Shown here: positions 1,212 through 18,719 of the stretch, piece after piece
How the letters are laid out: each line of letters starts with the position of its first letter
How positions within the stretch are numbered: position 1 is the stretch's first letter
Assembly: GCA_963810035.1 (NCBI GenBank)
Contig: CAWEMA010000007.1
Span: forward strand, 78,317-142,316
Source: an uncultured Actinomycetota bacterium
Lineage (GTDB): Bacteria; Actinomycetota; Actinomycetes; Propionibacteriales; Nocardioidaceae
Length of the DNA stretch: 64,000 bases
Direction of reading: 5' to 3'
Translations under genes and position numbers: made by a program
The notes under the pieces: generated by a model
The model's database searches: none
What the model saw: the letters and a program-made list of their open reading frames with translations, nothing else
Told to the model about the DNA's origin: nothing

Positions 1212-4200
1212 ATGTCAGGCGGTAAGTCCGACTCGTTCGTCCACCTGCACGTGCACACCGAGTACTCCATGCTCGACGGTGCGGCCCGGCTCGGGGAGAT
1301 GTTCGCCCGCACCGCCGAGCTCGGCATGGACGCGATCGCGATGACCGACCACGGCAACGTGTTCGGCGCCTTCGACTTCTACTCCAAGGCCAAGGCCGCC
1401 GGGGTCAAGCCGATCATCGGCATGGAGGCCTACCTCACCCCCAACACCTCCCGGTTCGACCGCAAGCGGGTGCGCTGGAACAACGGCGGCGACGACGACG
1501 TCTCCGGCAGCGGCGCCTACACCCACATGACGCTGCTGGCCGAGACCACGCAGGGCATGCACAACCTGTTCCGGCTCTCCTCCCGGTCCTCGCTCGAGGG
1601 CTTCTTCTACAAGCCCCGCGCCGACCGGGAGCTGCTCGCCGAGTACGCCACCGGCCTGATCGGCACCACCGGCTGCCCGTCCGGGGAGATCCAGACGTGG
1701 CTGCGCATCGGCGACTACGAGAAGGCGCGGGCCGCGGCCGGCGACTTCCAGGACATCTTCGGGCGCGACAGCTTCTTCCTCGAGCTGATGGACCACGGCC
1801 TCTCCATCGAGACCCGGGTCCGCGACGGGCTGCTGCGGCTCTCGAAGGACCTCGGGATCCCACCGGTCGCCACCAACGACTCGCACTACACCAACCCCGA
1901 GGACGCCTCCGCGCACGAGCACCTGCTCTGCGTCTCCTCCGGCAGCACGATGGCCGACCCGAAGCGGTTCAAGTTCAGCGGCGACAGCTACTACATCAAG
2001 TCTCCCGCGGAGATGCGCGAGCTGTGGGGCGAGCGCAACGGTCTGCCCGAGGCGTGCGACAACACGCTGCTGATCGCCGAGCGCTGCAACGTCGAGTTCG
2101 ACGAGTCGGCCAACTTCATGCCGCGGTTCCCGGTGCCCGCGGGGGAGACCGAGGACACCTGGTTCGTCAAGGAGGTCGAGAAGGGGCTGCGCTACCGCTA
2201 CCCCGACGGCATCTCCGACGCGGTCCGCAAGCAGGCGGACTTCGAGATCGGCGTCATCACCCAGATGGGGTTCCCGGGCTACTTCCTGGTCGTCGCGGAC
2301 TTCATCAACTGGGCCAAGAACAACGGCATCCGGGTCGGTCCCGGCCGTGGCTCGGGTGCGGGCTCGATGGCGGCGTACGCCATGCGGATCACCGACCTCG
2401 ACCCGCTGCAGCACGGCCTGATCTTCGAGCGGTTCCTCAACCCCGACCGCGTCTCGATGCCCGACTTCGACATCGACTTCGACGAGCGTCGGCGCGGTGA
2501 GGTGATCCGCTACGTCAGCGACAAGTACGGCGACGACCGGGTGTCGATGATCGTCACCTACGGCACGATCAAGGCCAAGCAGGCGGTCAAGGACTCCTCG
2601 CGGATCCTGGGCTACCCGTTCGCGATGGGCGACCGGATCACCAAGGCGATGCCCGCGGCGGTGATGGGCAAGGACGTCCCGCTCAAGGAGATCTTCGACC
2701 CGCAGCACGGCCGCTACGGCGAGGGCGGCGAGTTCCGCGCGCTCTACGACGCCGACGCGGACGTGAAGAAGGTCGTGGACACCGCGATCGGCATCGAGGG
2801 GCTCAAGCGCCAGTGGGGCGTGCACGCCGCCGGCGTGATCATGTCCAGCGCGCCGCTGCAGGACGTCATCCCGGTGATGAAGCGGGAGCAGGACGGCGCG
2901 ATCATCACGCAGTTCGACTACCCGACCTGCGAGCGCCTCGGCCTGATCAAGATGGACTTCCTGGGCCTGCGCAACCTGACCATCCTCGACGACGCGCTGG
3001 TCAACATCGAGAACAACCGGCAGGAGAAGGTCGTCCTCGAGGACCTCACCCTCGACGACCCCAAGGCGTTCGCGCTGCTGGCCAGGGGCGACACCCTGGG
3101 GGTGTTCCAGCTCGACGGCGGGCCGATGCGCGCGCTGCTGCGCAGCATGCGCCCGGACACGTTCGAGGACATCTCCGCGGTCGGCGCGCTCTACCGGCCC
3201 GGGCCGATGGGTGCGGACTCGCACAACAAGTACGCCCGCCGCAAGAACGGCCGCGAGGAGGTCGTGCCGATCCACCCGGAGCTGGCCGAGCCGCTCGCGG
3301 ACATCCTGGGGGAGACCTACGGCCTGATCGTGTACCAGGAGCAGGTCATGGCCATCGCGCAGAAGCTCGCGGGCTACTCGCTGGGCCAGGCGGACCTGCT
3401 GCGCCGCGCGATGGGCAAGAAGAAGAAGGCCGAGCTGGACAAGCAGTTCGAGGCCTTCTCCGCCGGCATGCAGGAGCGCGGCTACTCGATGGCCGCGGTC
3501 CAGACGCTGTGGGACATCCTGCTGCCGTTCTCCGACTACGCCTTCAACAAGGCGCACTCCGCCGCCTACGGCCTGGTGTCCTACTGGACGGCCTTCCTCA
3601 AGGCGAACTACCCGGCCGAGTACATGGCCGCCGTCCTCACGTCCGTCAAGGACGACAAGGACAAGATGGCGATCTACCTCAACGAGTGTCGCCGGATGAA
3701 GATCCAGGTGCTGCCGCCGGACGTCAACGAGTCCGAGGCCACCTTCACCCCGGTCGGCACCGACATCCGCTTCGGCCTCTCCGCGATCCGCAACGTCGGC
3801 ATCCACGTCGTCGACGCGATCGTCGCCGCCCGGCGCGAGCAGGGCCGCTACACCGACTTCGCCGACTTCATGGACAAGGTCCCGACGCTGGTCTGCAACA
3901 AGCGGGTCGTGGAGTCGCTGATCAAGGCGGGCGCCTTCGACTCGCTGGGCCACCGGCGGCGCGCGCTGGTGACGATCCACGAGTCCGCGGTCGACCAGTA
4001 CGCCGACATCAAGCGCAACGAGGCCATCGGCCAGGACTCCCTGTTCGGCGGGCTCGACGAGGACGCCGGAGGCGGGTTCGGGGTCGCCATCGCGGTGCCG
4101 GACATCGCCGACTGGGACAAGCAGACGCTGCTCGGGCACGAGCGCGAGATGCTCGGCCTCTACGTCTCGGACCACCCGCTGATGGGGCTCGAGCACATCC

Positions 4201-4751
4201 TCTCCGCCTCGGCGGACTGCACGATCGGCCAGCTGCTGGTCGACGAGGACCGCGCGGACGGGTCCACCGTGACCGTCTCGGGACTGATCACCTCTGTGCA
4301 GCGCAAGATCACCAAGCGCGGTGACGCCTGGGCGATGGTGACCGTGGAGGACCTCGAGGGTGGCATCGACGTGCTGCTGTTCCCGAGCGCCTACCAGCTC
4401 GCGAGCACGCTGCTCAACGAGGACGCGATCGTCACCGTGAAGGGCCGGCTGTCCCGCTCCAAGGACCAGCCGGAGCTGCACGGCCAGGAGGTCAGCGTCC
4501 CCGACCTCGACGACGGCCCCTCGGGGCCGGTGGTGATCACCATGCCGTCGACCCGCTGCACGATGCCGGTGGTCGAGCAGCTCAAGGACGTCCTGGGCAC
4601 GCACCCTGGCGTCACCGAAGTACGGTTGCGACTGATGACGAAGACCTCGACGACCGTGATGAAGCTCGACGACCGCCTGCGGGTGGCCGCGAGCCCGGCC
4701 CTGTTCGCCGACCTCAAGGCGCTGCTCGGGCCGCACTGCCTGGCCGGCTGA
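1212..4751 (+). CDS. dnaE: DNA polymerase III subunit alpha
   Basis: PHP motifs FVHLHVHTEYS and TDHG, GRGSGAGS, catalytic MPDFDIDFD, FNKAHSAAY, C-terminal OB fold; 1179 aa. Confidence 0.98.
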   Translation: MSGGKSDSFVHLHVHTEYSMLDGAARLGEMFARTAELGMDAIAMTDHGNVFGAFDFYSKAKAAGVKPIIGMEAYLTPNTSRFDRKRVRWNNGGDDDVSGSGAYTHMTLLAETTQGMHNLFRLSSRSSLEGFFYKPRADRELLAEYATGLIGTTGCPSGEIQTWLRIGDYEKARAAAGDFQDIFGRDSFFLELMDHGLSIETRVRDGLLRLSKDLGIPPVATNDSHYTNPEDASAHEHLLCVSSGSTMADPKRFKFSGDSYYIKSPAEMRELWGERNGLPEACDNTLLIAERCNVEFDESANFMPRFPVPAGETEDTWFVKEVEKGLRYRYPDGISDAVRKQADFEIGVITQMGFPGYFLVVADFINWAKNNGIRVGPGRGSGAGSMAAYAMRITDLDPLQHGLIFERFLNPDRVSMPDFDIDFDERRRGEVIRYVSDKYGDDRVSMIVTYGTIKAKQAVKDSSRILGYPFAMGDRITKAMPAAVMGKDVPLKEIFDPQHGRYGEGGEFRALYDADADVKKVVDTAIGIEGLKRQWGVHAAGVIMSSAPLQDVIPVMKREQDGAIITQFDYPTCERLGLIKMDFLGLRNLTILDDALVNIENNRQEKVVLEDLTLDDPKAFALLARGDTLGVFQLDGGPMRALLRSMRPDTFEDISAVGALYRPGPMGADSHNKYARRKNGREEVVPIHPELAEPLADILGETYGLIVYQEQVMAIAQKLAGYSLGQADLLRRAMGKKKKAELDKQFEAFSAGMQERGYSMAAVQTLWDILLPFSDYAFNKAHSAAYGLVSYWTAFLKANYPAEYMAAVLTSVKDDKDKMAIYLNECRRMKIQVLPPDVNESEATFTPVGTDIRFGLSAIRNVGIHVVDAIVAARREQGRYTDFADFMDKVPTLVCNKRVVESLIKAGAFDSLGHRRRALVTIHESAVDQYADIKRNEAIGQDSLFGGLDEDAGGGFGVAIAVPDIADWDKQTLLGHEREMLGLYVSDHPLMGLEHILSASADCTIGQLLVDEDRADGSTVTVSGLITSVQRKITKRGDAWAMVTVEDLEGGIDVLLFPSAYQLASTLLNEDAIVTVKGRLSRSKDQPELHGQEVSVPDLDDGPSGPVVITMPSTRCTMPVVEQLKDVLGTHPGVTEVRLRLMTKTSTTVMKLDDRLRVAASPALFADLKALLGPHCLAG

Positions 4752-5323
4752 TGGCCGAACCAGGTCCCGGCACCGGCCCCACGTCGACCGTGTGGCAGGC
4801 CCCACCCGGCGCGGGTGAACGCCCCCGTCGGGTCGACCGGGGCGCGCTCGGTCGTGACGTCGCCACCGTGCTGGGCTGCCTGCTGGTCCTCGGGGTGCTG
4901 TGCGGCGTGGCCTGGATGCTGCTCGTCTCACCCGCCGAGTTCACCAAGCTGCGAGACGGCGGCTCGATGAGCGAGGTCCAGCTGGGTCGGCGGTTCACCG
5001 CGGACGGCATGTACGTCGTCATCGCCGGGGTCGCCGGTCTGGTCGCCGGGGTCGCGCTGAGCTGGTGGCGCTCGCGGGACCCGCTGCTCACCAGCGCCCT
5101 CCTCGTCGTCGGGTCCGCCCTCGCGGCCGGCGCGATGTCGCTGACCGGGCACCTGCTGGGACCCACCGACACCGCAGCGGCCCTCGCGGCGGCCCAGGTC
5201 GGTGCACGCGTGCCCGAGCGGCTCGGCGTCGACGTGCTCACCGTCTACCTCGCGTGGCCGGTCGCGGTCCTCGCGGGCGCGCTGCTGGTGCTCCTGGGTC
5301 GGGTCTCGGACTCGGATTCATAA
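4751..5323 (+). CDS. Hypothetical membrane protein (about 4 TM, possibly DUF2567-like), coupled to dnaE
   Basis: TGATG overlap with the dnaE stop; four hydrophobic stretches. Confidence 0.7.
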   Translation: MAEPGPGTGPTSTVWQAPPGAGERPRRVDRGALGRDVATVLGCLLVLGVLCGVAWMLLVSPAEFTKLRDGGSMSEVQLGRRFTADGMYVVIAGVAGLVAGVALSWWRSRDPLLTSALLVVGSALAAGAMSLTGHLLGPTDTAAALAAAQVGARVPERLGVDVLTVYLAWPVAVLAGALLVLLGRVSDSDS

Positions 5324-5432
5324 CACGTCGGCGCAGGCGTCCCGTGACCCCTCCGTCGACCGGGTCCTGAGGCTAGGCTGATCGCTGGCATCTGTCCTGC
5401 CCGAGACCGGGCACGAACCAGGGGGAAGCACC

Positions 5433-7055
5433 ATGTCCACGAACGTCCCAGGCTCGTCCGAGCCCGAGTTCCTCGGCCCGGACAGCCCGGCTCCGGGCAC
5501 CACCGAGCCGCCACGCGGCGGCACCGGCAAGCGCACCGGCATCGTCGCCCTGGCTGCGGTGGCCGTCGTCGCGGCCGTCGGCGCCGGCGCGTACGGCGTC
5601 GTCCAGCTGATGTCGGGCGGCAGCTCCCCGGCGACCGCGGTGCCCGCCGACGCGCTCGGCTACGTCAGCCTCGACCTCGACCCGTCCGCCTCGCAGAAGA
5701 TCGAGGCGGTCAAGATCCTGCGCAAGTTCCCGGGCCTGAAGCAGGAGCTGAACATCGGCAGCCGGGACGACCTGCGCAAGTCCGTCTTCGACGAGATCGT
5801 CAAGAGCGGCGACTGCAAGGGCCTCGACTTCGCGAAGGACGTCGAGCCCTGGATCGGCGACCGGGTGGCCGTGGCCGCCGTACCGGACCCCGAAGAGGTG
5901 GCACTGCCCCTCGTCGTCCTCCAGGTCAGCGACCAGGACAAGGCGCGCGCCGGCGTCCGCAAGCTCGAGAAGTGCGGCGCCGCCGAGGACCAGGAGCCGG
6001 ACCGGACCGGCGTCGCGTTCGTGGGCGACTACCTGCTGCTCGCGGAGACGCAGAAGGAGGCGGACAGCATGGCCAAGGACGCCGAGGCGTCCACGCTCGC
6101 CGACGACAAGGCGTTCACCTCCGCGATGGAGCGCGCCGGGGACCCCGGCATCATCTCGATGTACGCCTCCAAGGACGCCCCCGACGCGATCGGCAAGGCC
6201 CAGTCGAAGGGGCAGGCCGGGATGCCCGGCATGTCCGGTTCCGAGCTCGACCAGCTCAACACGATGTTCAAGGACTTCGACGGGGCGGCCGGCGTGGTGC
6301 GCTTCTCCGACGGCGCGGTCGAGGCCGAGTTCACCGGAAAGGGTCTGCCGTCCAACATCGGTGCGGTGGCCGGTGACGGCGGGCCCGACGTGGCGACGCT
6401 TCCGGGCACCACGGCCGCGGCGTTCTCGGTCGCGTTCCGCGACGGCTGGCTCAAGGACTACCTCGACACCATGAACGAGGTGCTCGGTGGCGGCCAGTCG
6501 CTCGACGAGATGCTCGGCCAGGCCGAGCAGCAGACCGGACTGCAGCTTCCGGAGGATCTCGAGACGCTGCTCGGCGACGGGATCAGCGTCTCGGTCGACG
6601 CGGGGGCCGACCTCAAGAAGCTGACGGAGTCGCCGGACCCGACACAGGTCCCGGCCGGCATCCGGATCAAGGGTGACTCGGCCAAGATCACCGCGATCAT
6701 CGACAAGCTGAAGAAGGCCGCGGGACCCGACGGCGACATGGTCAAGGTCGCCGGCGGTGACGGCGTCGTCGCCGTCGGCCTCGACCCGGAGTACGTCGAC
6801 CAGCTCACGAAGAAGGGCGCGCTCGGCGACGTCGAGGCCTTCTCCGACGTGGTCCCCGAGGCGGACCGCGCGACCAGCGTGCTCTACGTCAACTTCGACG
6901 CCGGCGACGGCTGGGCCGAGAACCTCGCCGACCTGGTCTCCAGCGGTGACGCCGAGGTCAAGCAGAACATCGCACCGCTCGACGCGCTCGGGGTCAGCGC
7001 CTGGGAGGACGACGACCACGTGCAGCACGCCCTGCTCCGGCTGACCACGGACTGA
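5433..7055 (+). CDS. Membrane-anchored DUF3352-like exported protein
   Basis: One N-terminal TM, then PADALGYVSLDLDPSASQKIEA...DVEPWIGDRVAVA; RBS GGGGAAG; TAGGCT at 5374-5379. Confidence 0.75.
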   Translation: MSTNVPGSSEPEFLGPDSPAPGTTEPPRGGTGKRTGIVALAAVAVVAAVGAGAYGVVQLMSGGSSPATAVPADALGYVSLDLDPSASQKIEAVKILRKFPGLKQELNIGSRDDLRKSVFDEIVKSGDCKGLDFAKDVEPWIGDRVAVAAVPDPEEVALPLVVLQVSDQDKARAGVRKLEKCGAAEDQEPDRTGVAFVGDYLLLAETQKEADSMAKDAEASTLADDKAFTSAMERAGDPGIISMYASKDAPDAIGKAQSKGQAGMPGMSGSELDQLNTMFKDFDGAAGVVRFSDGAVEAEFTGKGLPSNIGAVAGDGGPDVATLPGTTAAAFSVAFRDGWLKDYLDTMNEVLGGGQSLDEMLGQAEQQTGLQLPEDLETLLGDGISVSVDAGADLKKLTESPDPTQVPAGIRIKGDSAKITAIIDKLKKAAGPDGDMVKVAGGDGVVAVGLDPEYVDQLTKKGALGDVEAFSDVVPEADRATSVLYVNFDAGDGWAENLADLVSSGDAEVKQNIAPLDALGVSAWEDDDHVQHALLRLTTD

Positions 7056-7096: not shown

Positions 7097-7170
7097 TTGT
7101 GGGGGGCCGGACGCAGCGATACGCTCCGCGTGGTATTGCGTATCGCGAAATGAGTTGCTCCATGCGCAAC
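7097..7170 (+). promoter_or_regulatory. metF promoter (TTGTGG-N17-TACGCT) and tandem operator pair
   Basis: -35 at 7097-7102, -10 at 7120-7125; palindromes ATTGCGTATCGCGAAAT (7135-7151) and GTTGCTCCATGCGCAAC (7154-7170). Confidence 0.7.
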
Positions 7171-8016
7171 AAGTCCCACGGCGCCTTCCTGGCCGACATG
7201 CTCTCGTCGGCCCGCTTCGAGGTGCTGCCCACCGGGAGCATCGAGGACAAGGTTCTCGAGCACCTCCCGCTGGAGCGCACGCTCACGGTGACCGCGTCCC
7301 CGACGAAGGGGATCGAGGCCACCCTGGACCTGACCGAGCGGCTCGCCCGCCACGGGTACGCCGTGGTGCCGCACCTCGCCGCACGGTTGGTCAGCGGTCG
7401 CACCGAGCTGTCCGAGATCTGCACGCGCATGCAGGCGGCCGGCGTCCGCACGGTGTTCGTGCCCGGGGGCGACGCCGACCCGCCGGTGGGGGACTACCAC
7501 AGCGCCCTCGACCTGCTCCAGGACCTGACCGCCCTGGGCCGGCCGTTCCCGGAGGTGGGGATCACCGGCTACCCGGAGTCGCACCCCACCATCAGCGACG
7601 ACCTCACGGTGCAGTCGATGTGGGACAAGCGCCGGCACGCGACGCACGTGGTCAGCAACCTGAACTTCGACCCCGAGGCGGTGCGCTCGTGGATCGACCG
7701 GATGCGCAGCCGCGGGATCACGCTGCCGGTGCTGCTGGGCATCCCCGGCCCCATCGACCGCGCGAAGCTGCTGGCGATGGCGACCAAGATCGGGGTCGGT
7801 GACTCGACCCGGTTCCTGGTCAAGCACAAGGGCACCTTCGCGCGGCTGGCCGCGCCGGGCGGGTTCACCGGCGAGCGGTTCCTGGAGCGGTGCGCCCCGG
7901 TGCTGGCCCGACCCGGGGCCCTGGTCACCGGGCTGCACGTCTACACGTTCAACCAGGTCGCCGAGACCGAGGCCTGGCGGCGGGAGTACCTCGACCGGCT
8001 GATGGCCGTGCGCTGA
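7162..8016 (+). CDS. metF: Methylenetetrahydrofolate reductase (short MTHFR family)
   Basis: RFEVLP, VTASP, VVPHLAAR, VFVPGGD, GITGYPESHP, GLHVYTFNQ. Start is ambiguous (7150, 7162 or 7198). Confidence 0.85.
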   Translation: MRNKSHGAFLADMLSSARFEVLPTGSIEDKVLEHLPLERTLTVTASPTKGIEATLDLTERLARHGYAVVPHLAARLVSGRTELSEICTRMQAAGVRTVFVPGGDADPPVGDYHSALDLLQDLTALGRPFPEVGITGYPESHPTISDDLTVQSMWDKRRHATHVVSNLNFDPEAVRSWIDRMRSRGITLPVLLGIPGPIDRAKLLAMATKIGVGDSTRFLVKHKGTFARLAAPGGFTGERFLERCAPVLARPGALVTGLHVYTFNQVAETEAWRREYLDRLMAVR

Positions 8017-8030
8017 GCGGGCCGTCGCGG

Positions 8031-8057
8031 TCAGCGCGGCAGCAGGTCGGCGAGCGC
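8031..8057 (-). other. Orphaned copy of the DUF1638 gene 3' end (encodes ALADLLPR-stop)
   Basis: Reverse complement reads gcg ctc gcc gac ctg ctg ccg cgc tga; 8041-8057 matches 8901-8917 at 16 of 17 nt. Confidence 0.7.
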
Positions 8058-8096: not shown

Positions 8097-8891
8097 ATGG
8101 GGGAGCCCGTGCAGTTGCAGGACCTGACCGGCAGGGTCGCGTTGGTGACCGGTGGCACGAGCGGGATCGGGCTGGCCACCGCCGGCGCCTTCGCCGAGCG
8201 CGGCGCCGACGTGGTGATCTGCGGTCGCAGCGAGACGCGTGGGCAGCAGGCGTTGAAGGAGCTCTGCGAGCCTGCGAACGTCAGCTTCGTCGCCGCCGAC
8301 GTCACCGACGAGCACGACGTGGTCGACCTCGTCCGGGAGGTGGTGGCCCGGCACGGCAGGCTCGACTTCGCCTTCAACAACGCGGCGAACGCCGAGGCAC
8401 TGACCAGCTCCGGTGCCTTCACCGACATGAGTCTCGAGGAGTTCGAAGGCATCGTCCGGACGCTGATGACGAGTGCGTGGCTGTGCATGCGCCACGAGGT
8501 GCCGGCGATGCTCGAGACCGGCGGAGGCGCCATCGTGAACACGTCCTCGGTCGACGCCAAGCTGCTCAGCGCAGGCACCGGCAGCTATGCCGCCAGCAAG
8601 CTCGGGCTCGAGGCGCTCACGGTCACGCTCGCCAAGGAGTTCGCCTCCCGCGGCATCCGGGTCAACGCGGTGCGTCCCGGCGCGATCCTCACTCCGATGC
8701 TCGAGCGCCACCTCGCCGCACCGACGGCGGAGGGACGGAAGGCCAACGTGGAGCGGTACGAGCAGGTGATCTCGATGCGCCGGCTCGGCCACCCGAGCGA
8801 GGTGGCCGCTGCGGTGACGTGGCTCTGCTCGGATGCCGCGTCCTACGTGACGGGTCAGGTGCTGACGGTGGACGGCGCGTTGGGGATGTAG
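8097..8891 (+). CDS. Classical short-chain dehydrogenase/reductase (FabG-like)
   Basis: TGGTSGIG, NNAA, YAASK, RVNAVRPG, GQVLTVDG; RBS GGGGAG. Confidence 0.9.
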   Translation: MGEPVQLQDLTGRVALVTGGTSGIGLATAGAFAERGADVVICGRSETRGQQALKELCEPANVSFVAADVTDEHDVVDLVREVVARHGRLDFAFNNAANAEALTSSGAFTDMSLEEFEGIVRTLMTSAWLCMRHEVPAMLETGGGAIVNTSSVDAKLLSAGTGSYAASKLGLEALTVTLAKEFASRGIRVNAVRPGAILTPMLERHLAAPTAEGRKANVERYEQVISMRRLGHPSEVAAAVTWLCSDAASYVTGQVLTVDGALGM

Positions 8892-9553
8892 CGGTCCCCG
8901 AGCAGGTCGGCCAGCGCGCGCTCGAGACCGGTGTGGCCGGTCTCCACGACGACCAGCGGCAGCCCGATCCGGGCGGCCGCCTGCTCGGCCAGGGCCCGCA
9001 GCTCGTCGTCGGGCTGCTGGGCCAGCCAGACCATCCGCGTGTAGTGCGCGAAGTAGTCGTCGCGCAGCTCCGGGTAGCGGTCCAGGCCCAGCTCCGCGAC
9101 CACGGTGCGGTTGAACGAGCGGACCAGGAAGTCGGTGAGCACGTAGGTGCCGGGCTCTGCCTCGAACATCGCGGCGAGCCGGTCGGCGCCGCCGTACACG
9201 TCGTAGCAGTGCAGGCCGGCGAGCCGGCCGAGACCGCGACGGTCGCAGACCTCGTCCAGGACGCCGTAGGTGCCGCAGTCGGCGTACCCGACCGCGACGG
9301 TGTCGTAGCGCTCCTGCAGGTCGGCCGCGAGCCGGTCCACCTCGCCGGCGATCCGCGCCGGGTGGTTGTGCAGCAGCGGTGGCAGCGGGTGTACGTCGAC
9401 GGGCCAGCCGCGCCGCTCCACCACCTGTGCGCAGGGGGCCGCGATCGCCCCGCACGCGATCAGGGCGACGCGTGCCCGGGGACGCTCAGCCGGGGAAGGC
9501 GAGGAGGTCGACGAACCGGTCGTTGAAGTCGGCGCGGTCGGAGAGCTCGACAT
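8855..9553 (-). CDS. DUF1638 family protein (partner of corrinoid systems)
   Basis: LIACGA, LHNHP, GYADCGTYG, HCYD, TYVLTDF, YFAHY. Start is uncertain; overlaps both neighbours. Confidence 0.8.
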   Translation of the reverse strand: MSSSPTAPTSTTGSSTSSPSPAERPRARVALIACGAIAAPCAQVVERRGWPVDVHPLPPLLHNHPARIAGEVDRLAADLQERYDTVAVGYADCGTYGVLDEVCDRRGLGRLAGLHCYDVYGGADRLAAMFEAEPGTYVLTDFLVRSFNRTVVAELGLDRYPELRDDYFAHYTRMVWLAQQPDDELRALAEQAAARIGLPLVVVETGHTGLERALADLLGDRYIPNAPSTVST

Positions 9554-11426
9554 ACTCCACCTCCTCCAGGAGCGCCAGGGCGCCGGCGCGCTCGCGCACG
9601 CTGAGCAGGCTCATCTTCGCGCCCTCACCGGCGACGTTGCCCGCCGAGACGATCCGGAGCACCGGGATCTTCGGCACCAGGCCGATACGCACGGCGGCCG
9701 CGGGGGAGAGGTAGCTGCCGAAGGAGCCGGCGAGCAGCACCTGCTGCACGTCGGAGTGCTCGAGGCCGAGCTGCTCGAGCAGCAGGGTCCAGCCGGTGGC
9801 GATCGCGCCCTTGGCGAACTGCAGCTCGCGGACGTCTCGCTGGGAGAGGTACACCGACTCCTCGGGCGGCGAGCCGGGCTCCGGACGGTGCAGGACGAAG
9901 ACCCGCTCCTGGCCGATGCTGGTCAGCCGGTCGGCGACCTGCGGGGCGATCTCGAGCGCCCGCTCGTCGGTGACGAACCGGCCGCTGGCGTCGAGCAGGC
10001 CGGCGCGGACCAGCTCGGAGACCACGTCGACGAGGCCGGAGCCGCACAGGCCCTGCGGCTCGACGTCGCCGATCACCTCCAGGTGCACGCCGGCCTCGTC
10101 GATCCGGACGACCTCGACGGCGCCGTCGGCCGCGCGCATGCCGCAGCGGATCGCGCCGCCCTCGAACGCCGGGCCGGCCGGGGCCGCGGTGGACACGATG
10201 GTGTCGCCGTCGCTGAGCACGATCTCGCAGTTGGTGCCGACGTCGATGAACAGCCGGGTGCGCTTGTCGCGGTCCATGCCGGTGGCCAGCATCCCCGAGA
10301 CGATGTCGCCCCCGACGTACGCACCGAGCGCCGGGAACAGCACGGCCCGGGCGCGCGGGTGCAGCGACAGGCCGAGGTCGGAGGCGAGCAGGGTGGGCAG
10401 GGTGGTGGTGGACATGACGAACGGCGCGACGCCGATCGGCTCGGGGTCGATGCCGAGCACCAGTGCGGTCATGGTGGCGTTGCCGGCGAGGGCGACCTCG
10501 TAGACCTCGTGCGGCTCCACGCCCGCCTCGTCGAGCACGTTGCCGGTCAGCTCGGCCAGGGTCGCCTGCGCGAGCTCGCGGAGCCGGTCCGCGGCGAGCG
10601 GGTCCAACATGGTGGCGCTGATCCGGGTGATCACGTCGCCGCCGAACGGTTGCTGCTTGTTGAGCATCGAGGCGACCGCCGCCGGGGTGCCGGTGGCGGT
10701 GTCGACCAGGGTCGCGACCACGGTGGTGGTGCCGAGGTCGAAGGCGATCGCGAACCGCCGCTGCGTGGTGTCCCCGGGCTCCACGTCGATGAGGGCCTCG
10801 TCGACGACGACCGCGGTCACCTTGAAGTCGGCCTGGCGCAGCACGTGCGGCAGCCGGCGCAGCACGTGCAGGTCGGGGGTGAGCTCGAGGTCCTCGATCG
10901 CGTCCTGGACCCGCTGCAGGTCGGTGCGCTGGTCGGACAGGGTCGGCTCGGTGAGCTCGACGTACCGCTTCTGCACCGCCGGGCGCAGGATGACCTGGCG
11001 TCCGACGCCGAGCGTGGCGGCCTTCGGGCGGGTCGTCAGCGGCGGCACCTCGACCTTGAGGTCCTGGGTCGCCTGGGCCAGGCAGGCCAGCCGCCAGCCG
11101 GCGTCGAGCTGCTCGGCGGTGAAGGAGCGTACGTCGAGCCGGTGGATCGGCACGCTGCCGTCGAGGACCTGCACCTTGCACTTCTTGCAGGTGCCGTGCC
11201 CGCCGCAGGTGGAGTCGATCGCGATGCCGTTCCAGCTGGCCGCGTCGAACACGCTGACGCCGGGCGGCACCCGGACGTCGCGGCCCGACGGCGTGAAGGA
11301 CAGCTGCACCCGGCCGGCGCCGTCGTGCGGGGGCAGCCCGGGCCCGTCGGGCCGGTCCAGGAGGCCTTCCCTGCGCAGGTCGTCGACCTCGACCTCGGGC
11401 GGTTGCGTCAGCGGCATCTCGTTCAT
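9486..11426 (-). CDS. ATP-dependent reductive activator of corrinoid proteins (2Fe-2S + ASKHA domain; RamA/RACo-like)
   Basis: CGGHGTCKKC and LAC ferredoxin cysteines; FDLGTTT, GGDVITRI, DVGTNCE, GPAFEG, LCGSGL, LAGSFGS. ATGA overlap with the upstream gene. Confidence 0.92.
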   Translation of the reverse strand: MNEMPLTQPPEVEVDDLRREGLLDRPDGPGLPPHDGAGRVQLSFTPSGRDVRVPPGVSVFDAASWNGIAIDSTCGGHGTCKKCKVQVLDGSVPIHRLDVRSFTAEQLDAGWRLACLAQATQDLKVEVPPLTTRPKAATLGVGRQVILRPAVQKRYVELTEPTLSDQRTDLQRVQDAIEDLELTPDLHVLRRLPHVLRQADFKVTAVVVDEALIDVEPGDTTQRRFAIAFDLGTTTVVATLVDTATGTPAAVASMLNKQQPFGGDVITRISATMLDPLAADRLRELAQATLAELTGNVLDEAGVEPHEVYEVALAGNATMTALVLGIDPEPIGVAPFVMSTTTLPTLLASDLGLSLHPRARAVLFPALGAYVGGDIVSGMLATGMDRDKRTRLFIDVGTNCEIVLSDGDTIVSTAAPAGPAFEGGAIRCGMRAADGAVEVVRIDEAGVHLEVIGDVEPQGLCGSGLVDVVSELVRAGLLDASGRFVTDERALEIAPQVADRLTSIGQERVFVLHRPEPGSPPEESVYLSQRDVRELQFAKGAIATGWTLLLEQLGLEHSDVQQVLLAGSFGSYLSPAAAVRIGLVPKIPVLRIVSAGNVAGEGAKMSLLSVRERAGALALLEEVEYVELSDRADFNDRFVDLLAFPG

Positions 11427-12301
11427 CCTGCGGCGGCAGCCTGCTTCTTGCGGTGAGCGGCGATCCAGCTGCCACCCCACTCGTCGTGCCCGAGCAGCAG
11501 GTCGGCGGCCTTGACCGCGCCGACGATCTGGGGGCTGCGGGTGTCCATGATCGCGCTGGTGAGACCCGCGGTCATCGCCATCGGCAGGAACGTCGCACCG
11601 AGGGTGTGCCGGTCGGGCATCCCGAAGGACACGTTGGACGCGCCGCAGGTCATGTTGAGGCCGTGCACCTCGCGGATCCGGCGCATCGTCTCGAGCGTGG
11701 TGCTGACCACCGAGGTGTCGGCGCCGATCGGCATCGCGAGCGGGTCGATCACGATGTCCTGCTTGGCGATGCCGTACTCCCCGGTCGCGACGTCCACGAT
11801 GTGCTGGACCAGCTCGAGGCGGCGGTCCGCCTCCATCGGGATCTCCTCCGCGTCGTTCGGCAGCGCGATGATCGCCGCGCCGTACTTCTTGACCAGCGGC
11901 AGGATCAGCGCCATCCGATCGTCCTCGGCGGTGACCGAGTTGACCAGCGCCCGGCCCTGGTAGACGGCGAGGCCGGCCTCGAGCGCCTCGACGACCGAGG
12001 AGTCGATGCACACCGGCTTGTCGGTGAGCCCCTGCACGAGGGTGATCGCCTGGGCGAGCAGCTCGGGCTCGTCGGTCATCGGCACGCCCATGTTGACGTC
12101 GAGGACGTCGGCGCCCCCCTCGACCTGCGCGATGACGTCGCGCTCGACCGCCGACAGGTCCCCGGCGCGCAGCTGCTCCTGGAAGATCCGGCGGCCGGTC
12201 GGGTTGATCCGCTCGCCGATCAGGCAGAAGCGGCGACCGTGCCCGATCACCACCTCGGCGGTGGCGGAGCGCAGCGTGGTCTCGAGAAGCTCGGCGCTCA
12301 T
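11423..12301 (-). CDS. Pterin-binding methyltetrahydrofolate:corrinoid methyltransferase
   Basis: IGERINPTGR, LDVNMG, CIDSS, LVNSV, IDPL, GASNVSFGMP, AIMD. Confidence 0.9.
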   Translation of the reverse strand: MSAELLETTLRSATAEVVIGHGRRFCLIGERINPTGRRIFQEQLRAGDLSAVERDVIAQVEGGADVLDVNMGVPMTDEPELLAQAITLVQGLTDKPVCIDSSVVEALEAGLAVYQGRALVNSVTAEDDRMALILPLVKKYGAAIIALPNDAEEIPMEADRRLELVQHIVDVATGEYGIAKQDIVIDPLAMPIGADTSVVSTTLETMRRIREVHGLNMTCGASNVSFGMPDRHTLGATFLPMAMTAGLTSAIMDTRSPQIVGAVKAADLLLGHDEWGGSWIAAHRKKQAAAAG

Positions 12302-12963
12302 GCGGTCACCAGCGCCCGCTTCTTGCCCAGCAGGTCCTTGGCGCGCTTGACGGTCGCGGACGCGTCGGGCGCGTAGCCGTCGGCGCCGACCGCGTCGGCG
12401 TACTCCTGGGTGACCGGTGCGCCACCGACCATCACGATCACCTGGTCGCGCAGCCCGGCCTTCTCGAGCGCGTTCAGGTTGGCCTTGAACATCGGCATGG
12501 TGGTGGTGAGGAACGCCGAGAAGCCGACGATGTCGGGCTGGTGCTCGATGATCTTCTCCACGAACTTCTCCGGTGCGACCTGCACGCCGAGGTCGATCAC
12601 CTCGAAGCCGGCGCCCTCGAGCATGATGTTGACGAGGTTCTTGCCGATGTCGTGCACGTCGCCCTTGACGGTGCCCATCAGGAACTTCCCGACGGTCTCC
12701 ACGCCGGTGTCGGCGAGCAGCGGGCGCAGCACCTCCATGGCGCCGGCCATCGCGCGCCCGGCGATCAGCATCTCCGGGACGAAGAAGTCGCCGCGCTCGA
12801 AGCGCGCCCCGACCTCCTCGAGTGAGGGGATCAGCGCGTCGAACAGCAGGGTCTGCGGTTCCATCTGCATCTCGAGGGCCCGATGGGTCAGGTCGAGCAC
12901 CTCGGGTGCGTTGCCGGTCAGCGTCTCGTCGTAGAGCCGCTGAAGGATCTCCTCGGGTGTCAT
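12298..12963 (-). CDS. Corrinoid (B12-binding) protein
   Basis: Cap domain followed by GTVKGDVHDIGKNLV (DxHxxG), SAFLTTTM, VGGAP, GADGY. Confidence 0.95.
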   Translation of the reverse strand: MTPEEILQRLYDETLTGNAPEVLDLTHRALEMQMEPQTLLFDALIPSLEEVGARFERGDFFVPEMLIAGRAMAGAMEVLRPLLADTGVETVGKFLMGTVKGDVHDIGKNLVNIMLEGAGFEVIDLGVQVAPEKFVEKIIEHQPDIVGFSAFLTTTMPMFKANLNALEKAGLRDQVIVMVGGAPVTQEYADAVGADGYAPDASATVKRAKDLLGKKRALVTA

Positions 12964-13802
12964 GCCGCGCCCTCCTTGGTGGTGCTGTCGGTGCTCCCGG
13001 AGCGGTCAGCGCCTCTGGAGCTTCCGGCCCGGTCAGGGCTCTCGGAGCCGTGCCGGGTCCGGCGGTGAAGCAGCGCCGACAGGGTGTCGGCCTGCTCGAT
13101 CAGGAGCCGACCGATGCGATCGACCCGGTCCTGGAGCCGGGCGGTGGGCCCGGAGATGCCGAGGGCGGCGAAGACGCCGTCCCTGCCCTCGACGGCGGCG
13201 GCGATACCGGTCAGCCCGGTCTCGAGCTCGTCCACGGTGACCGCGAAGCGGCGACGGCGCACGGAGGCCAGCTCGGTGGCCAGCGCGTCCCGGGTGGGCA
13301 CGGTCCGGTCGGTGCGGCGCTCGAGCCGGCCGGCCGGCAGCGGCAGGCGGTCGAAGGCGTAGAGCACCTTGCCCAGCGCGGAGCAGTGCGGGGGTACGTC
13401 GACCTGGTTCCAGTCGCGGGCCGAGAGCAGGTAGGTCGACTCGACCTGCGCGATGTGGACGACGTCCGTGCCGCGCGCGACGCCGAGGTGCACCGTCTCG
13501 CCGGTCTCGGCGCCGACGGTCTCCAGGACCGGACGGGCGAGCCGGGCGATCTGCGGCCAGGGGTCGTGCAGCGCGGCGTGCAGCGCGAACAGCGGCCCGG
13601 CGACGTACCCGCCGCCGGCGTCCCGCTCGATCAGCTCGGTGCGCTCCAGGGCGGCGAGCAGTCGCGAGGTGGTGGAACGGGCCAGGCCGGTCTCGTCGCT
13701 GAGCTCGGTGAAGCTGAGCGGCTCGTCGGCTCGCACCACCAGGTCGACGAGCGCTGCGGCGCGATCGACCGCCTGCGTGCCCGCCGGTGGAGTGTTGCTC
13801 AT
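12960..13802 (-). CDS. IclR-family transcriptional regulator (regulator 1; first gene of the corrinoid operon)
   Basis: QAVDRA HTH, GETVHLG, CSALGK, ELETGLTGIAA, ALGISGP. Confidence 0.92.
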   Translation of the reverse strand: MSNTPPAGTQAVDRAAALVDLVVRADEPLSFTELSDETGLARSTTSRLLAALERTELIERDAGGGYVAGPLFALHAALHDPWPQIARLARPVLETVGAETGETVHLGVARGTDVVHIAQVESTYLLSARDWNQVDVPPHCSALGKVLYAFDRLPLPAGRLERRTDRTVPTRDALATELASVRRRRFAVTVDELETGLTGIAAAVEGRDGVFAALGISGPTARLQDRVDRIGRLLIEQADTLSALLHRRTRHGSESPDRAGSSRGADRSGSTDSTTKEGAA

Positions 13803-13921: not shown

Positions 13922-15361
13922 ATGTTTCGCAACACGATGCCGAGGTACGAGATCCTCTCCGAGGACGCGATGGCCAAGCTCGACGCGGGCTGGCGTCGGC
14001 TGGTCACCGAGATCGGTGTCGAGTTCGACAGTGAGCGCGCGCTCGAGCTGTTCCGGCAGGCCGGCCAGCGGGTCGAGGACAAGACCGTCTACCTCGACCC
14101 CGAGTTCGTCCTCGCGCAGGTGGCCAAGGCCCCGCGCGAGTTCGACGTCCAGGCCCGCAACCCCGAGCACAACATCCACATCGGCGGCGACGCGATGGCG
14201 TTCGGCGCGGTCTACGGGCCGCCGTTCGTGCGCGAGGGTGACGTCCGCCGCGACGCGACCATGAACGACTTCGAGCGGTTCACCAAGCTCGCCCAGACCT
14301 TCCCGGTGCTCGACTCGGCGGGCGGTGTGATCTGCGAGCCCAACGACACACCGCTCGACTCGCGGCACCTCGACATGACCTACGCGCTGCAGACGCTGAC
14401 CGACAAGGTCTACATGGGCAACGTGGTCTCCGGCGTGAACGCCCGCGACACCATCGCGATGGGGGAGATCCTGTTCGGTGGCCGCGAGGCGATCGAGCAG
14501 ACCCCGGTCTCGATCTCGTTGATCAACTGCAACTCGCCGCTGCACTGGGACGGGCGGATGCTCGAGTCGCTCTTCGAGTACACCCTGGCCGGGCAGCCGT
14601 GCGTGGTGACGCCGTTCATCCTGATGGGCGCGATGTCCCCGGTGACGATCCCGGCTGCGCTCGTGCAGCAGATGGCCGAGGCGCTCTCCGGCATCGCGCT
14701 CACGCAGCTGGTCCGACCCGGTGCGCCGGTCATCTTCGGGTCGTTCCTGTCCAACATCGACATGCAGTCCGGGTCGCCGACGTTCGGCACGCCGGAGTCG
14801 GGCATCGGCCTGCTGTGCACCGGCCAGATCGCCCGGCACTTCGGCCTTCCGTTCCGTTCCGGCGGCGGGCTCACCTCGTCGCAGGTCGCGGACGCCCAGG
14901 CGGGCTACGAGGCCCTGATGACGATGCTGCCGACGTTCCTCGCCGGGGCCAACTGGGTGATGCACTCGGCCGGCTGGCTCGAGGGCGGCCTGGTCGCGGG
15001 CTTCGAGAAGTTCATCGTCGACGTGGAGATCCTGCAGATGCTGCGGGCGGAGTTCACCCCGCTCGAGATCGACGAGGACTCGCTCGCGTTCGGCGCGCAC
15101 CTGGAGGTCGGCCACGGCGGGCACTTCCTCGGGGCGATGCACACGATGGAGCGCTTCCGCACCTGCTTCTACCGCCCGATGCTCTCCTCCTCGGACAACT
15201 ACGAGCGGTGGATGCGCAACGGCGGCCTCGACGCCAACGCCCGCGCGACGAAGATCTACCAGGCCAAGCTCGAGGAGTATGTCGCCCCGCCGCTCGACGA
15301 CGCCGTGCGGGCCGAGCTGCAGGAGTACGTCGTACGCCGCCGCCGCGAGCTGGGCGACTGA
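13922..15361 (+). CDS. MttB-superfamily non-pyrrolysine methyltransferase (MtgB-like; quaternary-amine substrate likely)
   Basis: NSPLHWD, GAMSPVT, DMQSGSPTFGTPE, RSGGGLTSSQVADAQAGYE, HSAGWLEGG, VGHGGHFLG; RBS AGGAGG; no in-frame TAG. Confidence 0.9.
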   Translation: MFRNTMPRYEILSEDAMAKLDAGWRRLVTEIGVEFDSERALELFRQAGQRVEDKTVYLDPEFVLAQVAKAPREFDVQARNPEHNIHIGGDAMAFGAVYGPPFVREGDVRRDATMNDFERFTKLAQTFPVLDSAGGVICEPNDTPLDSRHLDMTYALQTLTDKVYMGNVVSGVNARDTIAMGEILFGGREAIEQTPVSISLINCNSPLHWDGRMLESLFEYTLAGQPCVVTPFILMGAMSPVTIPAALVQQMAEALSGIALTQLVRPGAPVIFGSFLSNIDMQSGSPTFGTPESGIGLLCTGQIARHFGLPFRSGGGLTSSQVADAQAGYEALMTMLPTFLAGANWVMHSAGWLEGGLVAGFEKFIVDVEILQMLRAEFTPLEIDEDSLAFGAHLEVGHGGHFLGAMHTMERFRTCFYRPMLSSSDNYERWMRNGGLDANARATKIYQAKLEEYVAPPLDDAVRAELQEYVVRRRRELGD

Positions 15362-15366
15362 CCGGG

Positions 15367-16248
15367 CTAGCGGAACACGACCGTCTTGTGACCGTTGAGC
15401 AGCACCCGGGACTCGGAGTGCCAGCGCACGGCCCGGGACAGCACCTGGCTCTCCACGTCGCGGCCGGCGGCGGCGAGCTCGGCGGCGTCGTACGTGTGGT
15501 CCACCCGCATCACGTCCTGCTCGATGATCGGGCCCTCGTCGAGGTCGGCGGTCACGTAGTGCGCGGTGGCGCCGACCAGCTTCACGCCCCGGTCGAACGC
15601 CTGGTGGTAGGGCTTGGCGCCCTTGAAGCTGGGCAGGAACGAGTGGTGGATGTTGATCGCCCGCCCGGCCAGCGCCCGGCAGGTGTCGTCGGAGAGCACC
15701 TGCATGTAGCGCGCGAGCACCACCAGGTCGATGCGCTCGGACTCGACGAGCGCGAGCATCTGCGCCTCGGCCTCCGCCTTCGTGTCGGCCGTGACCGGGA
15801 TGTGGTGGTAGGGCACGCCGTAGGACTTCGTCAGCGCCTCGCAGTCGGGGTGGTTCGAGACCACGCCGACCACGTCGATCTGCAGCGAGCCGCTGCTCCA
15901 CCGGAACAGCAGGTCGTTGAGGCAGTGGCTGAACTTCGAGACCAGGATCAGCGTGCGGTACGGCGTGGTCGCCTGCCAGAGCTCCCAGGCCATGCCCCAC
16001 CGCTCGGCCACCGGGGCGAACGCCGCGCGCAGCGACTCCAGGGCGTCGGTCGAAGCCGGCCCCTCGACGGCGAACTTCACCCGCATGAAGAACCGGTCCT
16101 CGGCGAGGTCGCCGAACTGCTGGCTCTCCAGGATGTTGCCGCCCTGCTCGACGAGCAGCCCGCTGACGGCGTGCACGATGCCGGCGCGGTCGGGGCAGAC
16201 GAGGGTGAGGACGTACGTCGCCGGGGCGGCGGCCTGCGGATCGGTCAT
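15367..16248 (-). CDS. purU: Formyltetrahydrofolate deformylase
   Basis: ACT domain CPDRAGIV, VSKFSHCLNDLL, LARYMQVLS, INIHHSFLPSFKGAKPYHQA, GPIIEQDV. Confidence 0.95.
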   Translation of the reverse strand: MTDPQAAAPATYVLTLVCPDRAGIVHAVSGLLVEQGGNILESQQFGDLAEDRFFMRVKFAVEGPASTDALESLRAAFAPVAERWGMAWELWQATTPYRTLILVSKFSHCLNDLLFRWSSGSLQIDVVGVVSNHPDCEALTKSYGVPYHHIPVTADTKAEAEAQMLALVESERIDLVVLARYMQVLSDDTCRALAGRAINIHHSFLPSFKGAKPYHQAFDRGVKLVGATAHYVTADLDEGPIIEQDVMRVDHTYDAAELAAAGRDVESQVLSRAVRWHSESRVLLNGHKTVVFR

Positions 16249-16329: not shown

Positions 16330-17127
16330 ATGGGGAACGGCAGGGAGAGTGGTGCGATGACCCCCGGCGACACTCCGGCCTCTGTCCAGTCGGTGGACCG
16401 GGCCCTCACCATCCTCGGCATCCTCGCGCGGCTCGGTGAGGCCGGAGTCACCGAGATCGCCGGCGAGCTCGGCGTCCACAAGAGCACCGCGTTCCGGCTG
16501 GTCGCGACGCTGGAGTCCCACGGCATGGTCGAGCAGAACGACGAGCGCGGCAAGTACCGCCTCGGCGTGGGCGTGCTCCGGCTCGCCGGCGCGACCACCG
16601 CCCGGCTCGACGTGGTGCAGGAGGCCCGGCCGATCTGCCGCAAGCTCGCCGCCGACTCGGGGGAGACCGTCAACATCGCGGTGCTCTCCGACCGGTCCGC
16701 GCTCTACCTCGACCAGGTCGCCGGCCAGTCCGCGCTGCAGTCCCACAACTGGGTCGGCCAGCACATCCCGCTGCACGCCACGTCCAACGGCAAGGTGCTG
16801 CTCAGCGGTCTGTCGCCCGACGAGATCGACAACCGGCTGCCCCGGCTGCCCTCCTACACCGCGGAGACGGTCACCACCAAGGCCAAGCTGCGCCGCGAGC
16901 TCACCGAGGTGCGCGAGCAGGGGTACGCCGTCGCGGTGGACGAGCTCGAGGTCGGGCTGACCGCTATCGCCGCACCCATCCGGAACGCGCACGGGGACGT
17001 GATCGCCTCGCTCAGCGTGTCCGGGCCGACGTTCCGGCTGGCGGAGCCGCGGGTGAAGGAGCTGATCCCGGTGGTGCAGGATGCGGCTGACGAGGTCTCG
17101 CGTCGACTTGGTTTCGGAACGGCGTGA
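16330..17127 (+). CDS. IclR-family transcriptional regulator (regulator 2)
   Basis: VQSVDRAL, VHKSTAFRL, GETVNIAV, HATSNGKVLL, ELEVGLTAIAAP. TACCGT (16318-16323) lies 6 nt before ATG 16330, suggesting a leaderless start; alternative start 16357. Confidence 0.92.
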   Translation: MGNGRESGAMTPGDTPASVQSVDRALTILGILARLGEAGVTEIAGELGVHKSTAFRLVATLESHGMVEQNDERGKYRLGVGVLRLAGATTARLDVVQEARPICRKLAADSGETVNIAVLSDRSALYLDQVAGQSALQSHNWVGQHIPLHATSNGKVLLSGLSPDEIDNRLPRLPSYTAETVTTKAKLRRELTEVREQGYAVAVDELEVGLTAIAAPIRNAHGDVIASLSVSGPTFRLAEPRVKELIPVVQDAADEVSRRLGFGTA

Positions 17128-18705: not shown

Positions 18706-18719
18706 CGAAGGGCGAGGAC

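Follow-up and report, generated by a model that had tools for sequence, protein, structure and literature searches.

We analysed a 64,000-nucleotide stretch of DNA, here called the window, from the 99% complete genome (G000) of an uncultured member of the Nocardioidaceae (Actinomycetota) that is described as a soil actinobacterium. The window contains five overlapping genes on the minus strand (positions 8855-13802) that encode an IclR-family regulator, a corrinoid protein, a pterin-binding methyltransferase, an activase of the RACo/RamA type and a DUF1638 protein. The gene for an MttB-family methyltransferase lies next to them on the plus strand (Table 1). From the domain content and surroundings of these genes, we consider it very likely that the locus encodes the actinobacterial form of MtgB/MtgC/MtgD, an aerobic glycine betaine demethylase that depends on cobalamin, together with the proteins that reactivate it.

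The window has a G+C content of about 71%, so that many of its long open reading frames (ORFs) are spurious, and real genes were chosen using Pfam matches and frame checks. A preliminary description of this DNA had reported a tight operon of four genes at 8855-12963, and all four are present on the minus strand and overlap. It had also placed the MttB gene divergent from this operon. The non-pyrrolysine mttB gene is indeed divergent, but the gene that it faces is the one for IclR. Because the IclR gene overlaps the corrinoid protein gene by 4 nucleotides, it is the head of the operon and is directly divergent from mttB. By their coordinates the corrinoid and pterin genes overlap by 4 nucleotides as well, the junction between the pterin and activase genes is a 4-nucleotide ATGA overlap, and the activase and DUF1638 genes share an out-of-frame overlap of 68 nucleotides. 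An ORF at 9625-11475 (616 amino acids) was rejected as the ASKHA gene since it is in the wrong frame, with no Pfam match and a low-complexity translation rich in Arg and Pro. A search with Rfam found neither a cobalamin riboswitch nor another RNA family near the operon.

We compared this arrangement with the best 80 DUF1638 loci of a species-level genome collection by running the window proteins against them with tblastn. These loci come from Nocardioidaceae or unclassified Actinomycetota, plus Aeromicrobium, Marmoricola, Mumia, Nostocoides and Jatrophihabitans. The order IclR-corrinoid-pterin-activase-DUF1638, with mttB divergent and metF convergent, was kept in nearly all of the loci that were long enough to show it (about 70 related loci). 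In nearly all of them metF directly follows DUF1638, the position of IclR at the head of the operon is conserved, and the module usually has purU and another IclR gene close by. The recurrence of this arrangement across related loci means that it is not due to chance. The operon at this locus is genuine, complete and well conserved.

The start codon of DUF1638 is the ATG at 9553, which lies 68 nucleotides within the activase gene and behind GGAGGAGG. This ATG falls in codons for a conserved E-Y-V-E-L stretch of the activase and in almost all 80 loci it is the first, and usually the sole, start in frame. Its retention across related loci indicates that the overlap between the two genes is a conserved feature. 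The Ser/Thr-rich N-terminus of DUF1638 is a +1 reading of the C-terminus of the activase. Four fusions of RACo to DUF1638 in a representative library (P0040, P0044, P0085 and P0120) contain broken or partial RACo domains, and we rejected them as being best read as frameshifted calls from metagenome-assembled genomes across the 68-nucleotide overlap.

The short-chain dehydrogenase gene between DUF1638 and metF has no orthologue at this position in any of the 80 related loci, is flanked by 17-nucleotide direct repeats that are identical at 16 of 17 positions (8041-8057 and 8901-8917) and overlaps the 3' end of DUF1638 by 37 nucleotides. This gene is a local, lineage-specific insertion that lies outside the system.

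Table 1. Positions of predicted genes at the locus and in the neighbouring region (numbered from the first nucleotide of the window).
Feature	Position	Strand	Domains and match
metF2-like methylenetetrahydrofolate reductase, convergent with the operon	7162-8016	+	PF02219, E 1.8e-10
Short-chain dehydrogenase	8130-8891	+	PF13561/PF00106, E 1e-50 to 1e-61
DUF1638 protein	8855-9553	-	PF07796, E 2.7e-20
RACo/RamA-type activase	9486-11426	-	Fer2, RACo_linker, Raco_middle, RACo_C_ter, E 4e-11 to 2e-74
MtgD-like pterin-binding methyltransferase (TIM barrel)	11423-12301	-	PF00809, E 2.6e-26
MtgC-like corrinoid protein	12298-12963	-	PF02607 + PF02310
IclR-family regulator, first gene of the operon	12960-13802	-	PF09339 + PF01614
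MtgB-like MttB-family methyltransferase (non-pyrrolysine)	13922-15361	+	PF06253, E 4e-187
purU, formyl-tetrahydrofolate deformylase	15367-16248	-	ACT + Formyl_trans_N
Second IclR-family regulator	16330-17127	+	
betB, aldehyde dehydrogenase	17221-18705	+	
betA, GMC oxidoreductase	18702-20417	+	
ProV/OpuA-type betaine/choline ABC transporter, ATPase	20432-21487	+	
ProV/OpuA-type betaine/choline ABC transporter, permease	21484-23481	+	
ProV/OpuA-type betaine/choline ABC transporter, OpuAC binding protein	23532-24497	+	
Dimethylglycine/sarcosine dehydrogenase-like enzyme	24630-27146	+	DAO + FAO_M + GCV_T
ETF beta	27143-27916	+	
ETF alpha	27913-28872	+	

A predicted glycine betaine demethylase module

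The MttB-family protein is 479 amino acids long without an internal stop and is 45% identical to its homologue from Sinorhizobium meliloti. In sequence searches of the PDB it matched this S. meliloti protein (4YYC) at 2e-129 and MtgB from Desulfitobacterium hafniense (2QNE/9YCE) at about 1e-121, whereas true MttB was matched at only 2e-37 (7XCL). The gene has no in-frame amber codon, and the protein scores 279 bits against the pyrrolysine MttB model TIGR02369, for which the cut-off is 525. An 'in-frame TAG' in the MttB genes of two relatives was discarded as a sign of pyrrolysine; in the one that was examined (G071) it is the terminal stop in the profile match.

The corrinoid protein has a B12 cap followed by a Rossmann domain in which the cobalamin motif DxHxxG is present as DVHDIG (residues 102-107). 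Its matches in the PDB sequence search include 1Y80 (1e-55) and MttC (6e-40), and 4JGI and MtmC were also ahead of MetH (1e-24). It is 44% identical to MtgC from S. meliloti versus 31% to the MetH encoded by its own genome. Similarly, the pterin enzyme is 47% identical to S. meliloti MtgD versus 32% to the corresponding domain of the MetH from its own genome. Its closest PDB sequence is MeTr (2YCK, 7e-43), and it passes the NCBIfam model PRK07535 for methyl-tetrahydrofolate:corrinoid/Fe-S protein methyltransferases with 314 bits (cut-off 259). By these comparisons the corrinoid protein is closer to the MttC/MtmC/MtgC type, and the pterin enzyme closer to MeTr/AcsE, than to the domains of MetH. 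The preliminary description had called the module methionine-synthase-like. This is justified in that it shares with MetH a B12 cap and Rossmann domain with DxHxxG and a pterin-binding barrel, but the label is loose. In contrast to MetH the components here are separate proteins without the activation domain PF02965, and they are predicted to use an amine as methyl donor and an ATPase of the RACo type for reactivation.

The match of the activase to RACo (PDB 3ZYY; E 2e-101) spans the whole protein and takes in the [2Fe-2S] domain. The activase has four cysteines (74, 80, 83 and 115) in its N-terminal Fer2 (2Fe-2S) domain and shares 31% identity with the ASKHA protein of S. meliloti. It has the same four Pfam domains as RACo from Carboxydothermus hydrogenoformans (3ZYY/4C1N) and as RamA/RamQ from methylamine and quaternary-amine systems. 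It differs from RACo in that its client would be an MtgC-type corrinoid protein in an aerobe and in that it is paired with DUF1638. The DUF1638 protein scores 73 bits against PF07796 (cut-off 27), covering profile positions 2-160 of 161, and is 36% identical to its S. meliloti counterpart. The genome contains a single RACo gene, a single DUF1638 gene and a single MttB gene, all of which are at this locus.

Downstream of mttB and in the same orientation are the bet genes, the transporter genes and the genes for the dimethylglycine/sarcosine dehydrogenase-like enzyme and ETF. Judged by their annotations, these neighbours form an island for the conversion of choline to betaine, dimethylglycine and then sarcosine/glycine. 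The MttB module is the only candidate in this island for the first demethylation, and we saw no other betaine demethylase there.

Based on this, we propose the following route. Choline would be converted to betaine by BetA and BetB, and betaine would be imported by the ProV/OpuA transporter. MtgB would demethylate glycine betaine once, to dimethylglycine, with the N-methyl group going to MtgC in its Co(I) state, and MtgD would then move this group from methyl-Co(III) on to tetrahydrofolate (THF). The resulting CH3-THF would be oxidised to CH2-THF by the metF2-like enzyme, a role that we infer from MetF2 of the published system (PMC12478193), and purU is predicted to act at the end of this one-carbon oxidation route. 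Oxidation of MtgC to its inactive Co(II) state would be reversed by the [2Fe-2S]/ASKHA activase, which would restore Co(I) using ATP, with DUF1638 as its partner. Dimethylglycine would be demethylated further by the dimethylglycine dehydrogenase-like enzyme with ETF.

This mechanism is a published one. Mausz 2025 modelled MtgB as passing the betaine methyl group to MtgC and MtgD as passing it to THF, followed by oxidation by MetF2 (PMC12478193). RamA and DUF1638 proteins increase on N-osmolytes in that work, and their genes are often co-located or in operons. The loci described there are proteobacterial, and Actinomycetota are mentioned only as 5% of ocean mtgC reads. In S. meliloti the locus contains bmt, an mttB-family gene and genes for a cobalamin-binding protein, DUF1638, metV/metF, a methyl-THF cobalamin methyltransferase and an ASKHA protein (PMC12478193). 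Our literature search found no paper tying MttB or MtgB to a characterised locus of Nocardioides or another actinobacterium. Thus, what we describe is a new host and a new phylum for a known pathway.

The system of Ruegeria pomeroyi, Phaeobacter inhibens and S. meliloti, MtgBCD(E) with a RamA-like protein, DUF1638 and MetF2, has the same six protein families as the locus described here, with 31-47% identity to the S. meliloti proteins. It is also alike in having metF and a formyl-THF enzyme nearby, co-located genes for betaine catabolism and an MtgE/Bmt-like gene elsewhere in the genome. The differences are that the host here is a Gram-positive soil organism with a complete MetH, that the genes form a single overlapping operon headed by IclR, and that metF is without an adjacent MetV or PF13769 gene; a PF13769 ORF is instead coupled to the MtgE-like gene. 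MtgB/MtgC/MtgA from D. hafniense is cited as a glycine betaine:THF system (Ticak 2014, as cited in PMC12478193 and PMC13080624) and likewise combines an MttB-family MT1, a corrinoid protein and a THF methyltransferase. By contrast, the locus described here is in an aerobic host, includes DUF1638 and has a THF methyltransferase of the PF00809 MeTr/MetH type, with no MtgA structure among its PDB sequence matches.

Several observations weigh against this assignment. One concerns the substrate-binding site. Residues Y97, R312, H348 and F356 bind betaine in D. hafniense MtgB, where F356L raises the Michaelis constant (Km) several hundred-fold (Picking 2026, PMC13080624). By HMMER alignment the equivalents of Y97, R312 and H348, three of these four experimentally defined residues, are conserved, but the equivalent of F356 is Gly (residue 356) both here and in S. 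meliloti 4YYC. Betaine specificity is therefore not proven by the residues. Both proteins also have a Trp four residues before this Gly (AGWLEGGL versus AGILQYFM), and the aerobic clade may build the aromatic cage differently. The corrinoid protein has two MtgC models and MtbC as its top NCBIfam matches, all of which are under their cut-offs, and the activase is under the curated NCBIfam cut-off for AcsV. Neither a known fold nor a cofactor site could be assigned to DUF1638 by sequence and structure searches. CbiC (precorrin-8X methylmutase, PF02570) was not found in this 99% complete genome, which does contain CobS on contig C3. The lack of a CbiC match points to salvage as the source of the cofactor. 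This organism may salvage corrinoids instead of making the corrin ring, despite encoding at least two putative B12-dependent methyltransferase systems.

Distribution of the module in Actinomycetota

To describe how the components are distributed we used 81 Nocardioidaceae genomes including G000, of which 55 are of high quality and eight are flagged as unpublished (G011, G022, G028, G031, G034, G041, G051 and G077). Related genomes are not independent, so all of these counts are descriptive. DUF1638 was present in 44 of the 81 genomes, MttB in 42 and RACo in 42. DUF1638 and MttB occurred together in 41 genomes and were both missing from 36. The mismatches between them (G020, G032, G065 and G080), as well as those involving RACo, are all in genomes that are 70-86% complete. 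All three components were present in 30 of the 55 high-quality genomes. When the eight unpublished genomes were left out, 35 genomes had both DUF1638 and MttB, three had DUF1638 only, one had MttB only and 34 had neither.

A second sample comprised 150 Actinomycetota genomes outside the first, all with a completeness of 90% or more. DUF1638 was found in 34 of these, MttB in 23 and RACo in 59. All 34 genomes with DUF1638 also had RACo, and 25 of the 59 with RACo had no DUF1638. MttB was accompanied by DUF1638 in 21 of 23 genomes; by contrast, 13 of the 34 genomes with DUF1638 had no MttB-family gene. This supports the idea that DUF1638 partners some of the RACo-type activases, irrespective of the methyl donor. 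The preliminary description had suggested that DUF1638 is a general factor of the corrinoid cycle, and these counts agree with that suggestion, which they sharpen to a partner of a RACo subset. Its other proposal, that the parts of a split MetH work here with an MttB-family amine methyltransferase and send methyl groups to THF, is supported by the gene content, the gene context and these phyletic patterns.

On a metagenome contig from JGI (L096, positions 1300-5872), DUF1638 lies between a gene for an MtrH-family methyltransferase and a full RACo gene, which is followed by a gene for a URO-D-family methyltransferase. Judged by these families, this is a different corrinoid methyl-transfer system with the same DUF1638/RACo pair.

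Homocysteine methyltransferases and alternative explanations

In a profile search we found no PF02574 homocysteine domain on the contig that contains the window, in line with the statement in the preliminary description that the window lacks a Zn/homocysteine methyltransferase. Its conclusion that the homocysteine-binding subunit is lacking applies only to the window. The genome has three PF02574 matches, which are a complete five-domain MetH of 1263 amino acids that contains the PF02965 activation domain, a stand-alone protein of 288 amino acids on contig C15, and a stand-alone MtgE/Bmt-like protein encoded at C10:229782-230660, away from the module. This last protein is 45.5% identical to S. 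meliloti Bmt/MtgE and has an intact Zn triad (C206 in GANCG and C273-C274 in GGCCG). Its top NCBIfam match is betaine--homocysteine S-methyltransferase, at 288 bits where the cut-off is 338.

MtgE, formerly called 'Bhmt/Bmt', shares MtgC and MtgD for methionine synthesis, and such a dual function has been published for Ruegeria (PMC12478193). By analogy, MtgC, MtgD, RACo and DUF1638 might also serve the MtgE-like protein in trans, so that methyl groups from betaine, or from CH3-THF with MtgD working in reverse, would be passed to methionine in parallel to MetH. This would extend betaine demethylation as the best explanation rather than replace it, and we judge its chances to be slightly short of even. 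The features of the MtgE-like protein given above and its distribution favour this. Stand-alone orthologues with 66-78% identity occur in 15 genomes from ten genera, none of them unpublished. These are 15 of the 44 Nocardioidaceae genomes with DUF1638, compared with none of the 37 without it. The MetH activation domain was not found in six of the 15 (G007, 92% complete; G021; G029, 99%; G040, 96%; G075; G080), and seven of the other 66 genomes of the family lack it. The six genomes may rely on a split methionine synthase like that of the Rhodobacterales. This distribution agrees with the published view of MtgE as an enzyme that requires the MtgC/MtgD module and is able to take the place of MetH. 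Against a dual function here are the complete five-domain MetH of this organism, which makes such a route unnecessary for methionine synthesis, the sub-threshold NCBIfam score and unlinked position of the MtgE-like gene, and the nested distribution of MtgE, which partly reflects shared ancestry. We also observed that MetH in the Nocardioidaceae is of two kinds, one matching the activation domain at about 1e-126 (the type of this genome) and the other at about 1e-40 along less of the profile.

A second alternative keeps the mechanism and changes the substrate to another methylated amine, such as proline betaine, carnitine, gamma-butyrobetaine, choline or dimethylglycine. The Gly in place of F356 is consistent with this, as the aromatic pair is what varies among MttB-family enzymes of differing specificity (PMC13080624), and the operon has its own IclR apart from the one beside the bet genes. 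However, the other three betaine-binding residues are conserved, and the enzyme scores equally against MtgB and the S. meliloti homologue and far above true MttB. In addition, the neighbouring genes are predicted to make or import glycine betaine and to degrade dimethylglycine, no other candidate for betaine demethylation was seen in the island, and the genome has only this one MttB gene. We therefore regard a different substrate as improbable, and glycine betaine is the most likely one given the gene context.

Finally, it is very improbable that the module is simply a split methionine synthase with an incidental MttB neighbour and mutants that are only methionine auxotrophs, even though its parts list matches the split MetH of Phaeobacter, which the preliminary description had described correctly (PMC5764234), and an MtgE-like gene exists in trans, because the genome has a full MetH with its activation domain, nearly all relatives have a divergent mttB beside the module, the rest of the island is for choline and betaine catabolism, and 29 of the 44 DUF1638-positive genomes of the family have no MtgE-like gene yet keep MttB beside the module. 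The preliminary description had named a similar scenario as evidence against its own proposal; a candidate for the trans-encoded homocysteine methyltransferase that it envisaged does exist and may use this module, but the complete MetH makes pure methionine auxotrophy unlikely. The same 29 genomes indicate that DUF1638 is not specific to methionine synthase.

DUF1638 and PF13769 as candidate activase partners

No function was proposed for DUF1638 by Price 2018, who also noted as unexplained that S. meliloti possesses these proteins in addition to an ordinary MetH (PMC5764234). From the gene order and co-occurrence described above, we assign DUF1638 as a predicted accessory of the activase, which might relay electrons, shield Co(II)/Co(I) from oxygen or load the cofactor. 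By a full-library search DUF1638 has 1348 relatives (E <= 1e-3). When 58 members of nearly full length were aligned, C34, C93 and G94 proved invariant, and H62, C116, Y117, D100, T140 and D141 are conserved in at least 90%. An AlphaFold2 model of the protein has two alpha/beta lobes (mean predicted local distance difference test, pLDDT, 91.5; predicted template modelling score, pTM, 0.82). Read from the secondary-structure string of this model, the conserved residues are placed just after strands 29-33, 52-56, 85-89 and 136-139. This is the usual place for a ligand site in alpha/beta folds of this kind, and the model and alignment suggest that the cluster of conserved Cys and His residues is probably a metal, Fe-S or corrinoid site. 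The tail past residue 218 is unlike that of relatives; neither the Pfam domain nor the modelled fold is incomplete.

Searching the PDB with the DUF1638 sequence gave chance-level matches only and no solved structure that is a sequence relative, and Foldseek returned nothing at E <= 1e-3. An exhaustive structural search with VIA gave generic two-lobe, Rossmann-like matches within the background range of the tool. The best of these (Z 9.3) were of the periplasmic-binding/LacI type and Asp/Glu racemases, with a cobalamin-binding Rossmann domain and CbiK at Z of about 7.

Another small protein recurs with DUF1638 and MtgE. In the C10:229436-230660 region of this genome (L088:8436-9661), an ORF of 116 amino acids that matches PF13769 ('Virulence_fact') has a stop codon that overlaps the ATG of the MtgE-like gene (ATGA), suggesting translational coupling. 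PF13769 immediately precedes the MtgE-like gene in G000, G072, G029 (both copies) and G007, and it was not found there in G040 or G008. It is fused to DUF1638 in P0114, which occurs on two contigs from two samples, and directly follows DUF1638 on locus L095. A gene annotated as a 'virulence factor' follows DUF1638 on a plasmid of Terrarubrum and precedes metV/metF in S. meliloti. Our literature search on PF13769 found no paper that mentions the domain.

These observations lead us to a tentative proposal, which as a whole we hold to be less likely than not. DUF1638 might serve some of the RACo/RamA-type activases, as a partner subunit dedicated to them, rather than being a factor specific to MetH-like or MttB systems, with Cys34, Cys93, Cys116 and His62 forming a metal, Fe-S or corrinoid site for electron delivery to the Co(II) corrinoid protein, or for its protection or loading, and PF13769 might be a third accessory member.

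The new elements here are the almost perfect co-occurrence of DUF1638, RACo and MttB in the 81 Nocardioidaceae genomes, the restriction of DUF1638 to RACo-positive genomes among the 150 other Actinomycetota, with MttB missing from 13 of the 34, the confinement of the MtgE-like gene to genomes with the module, and the recurrence of PF13769 with DUF1638 and MtgE. The phyletic data narrow the question of what DUF1638 does, since it is always found with a RACo-type activase and not always with MttB or a homocysteine methyltransferase. Cultured Nocardioides strains that contain the operon exist, which makes the role of DUF1638 testable. About half of the sampled Nocardioidaceae have the system, and DUF1638 is present in about a quarter of the sampled phylum. 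If our assignment is correct, oxygen-tolerant, B12-dependent betaine demethylation, described recently for marine and rhizobial Proteobacteria, would also take place in common Actinomycetota of soil, and the turnover of betaine and choline in soil would then depend on cobalamin that is possibly salvaged.

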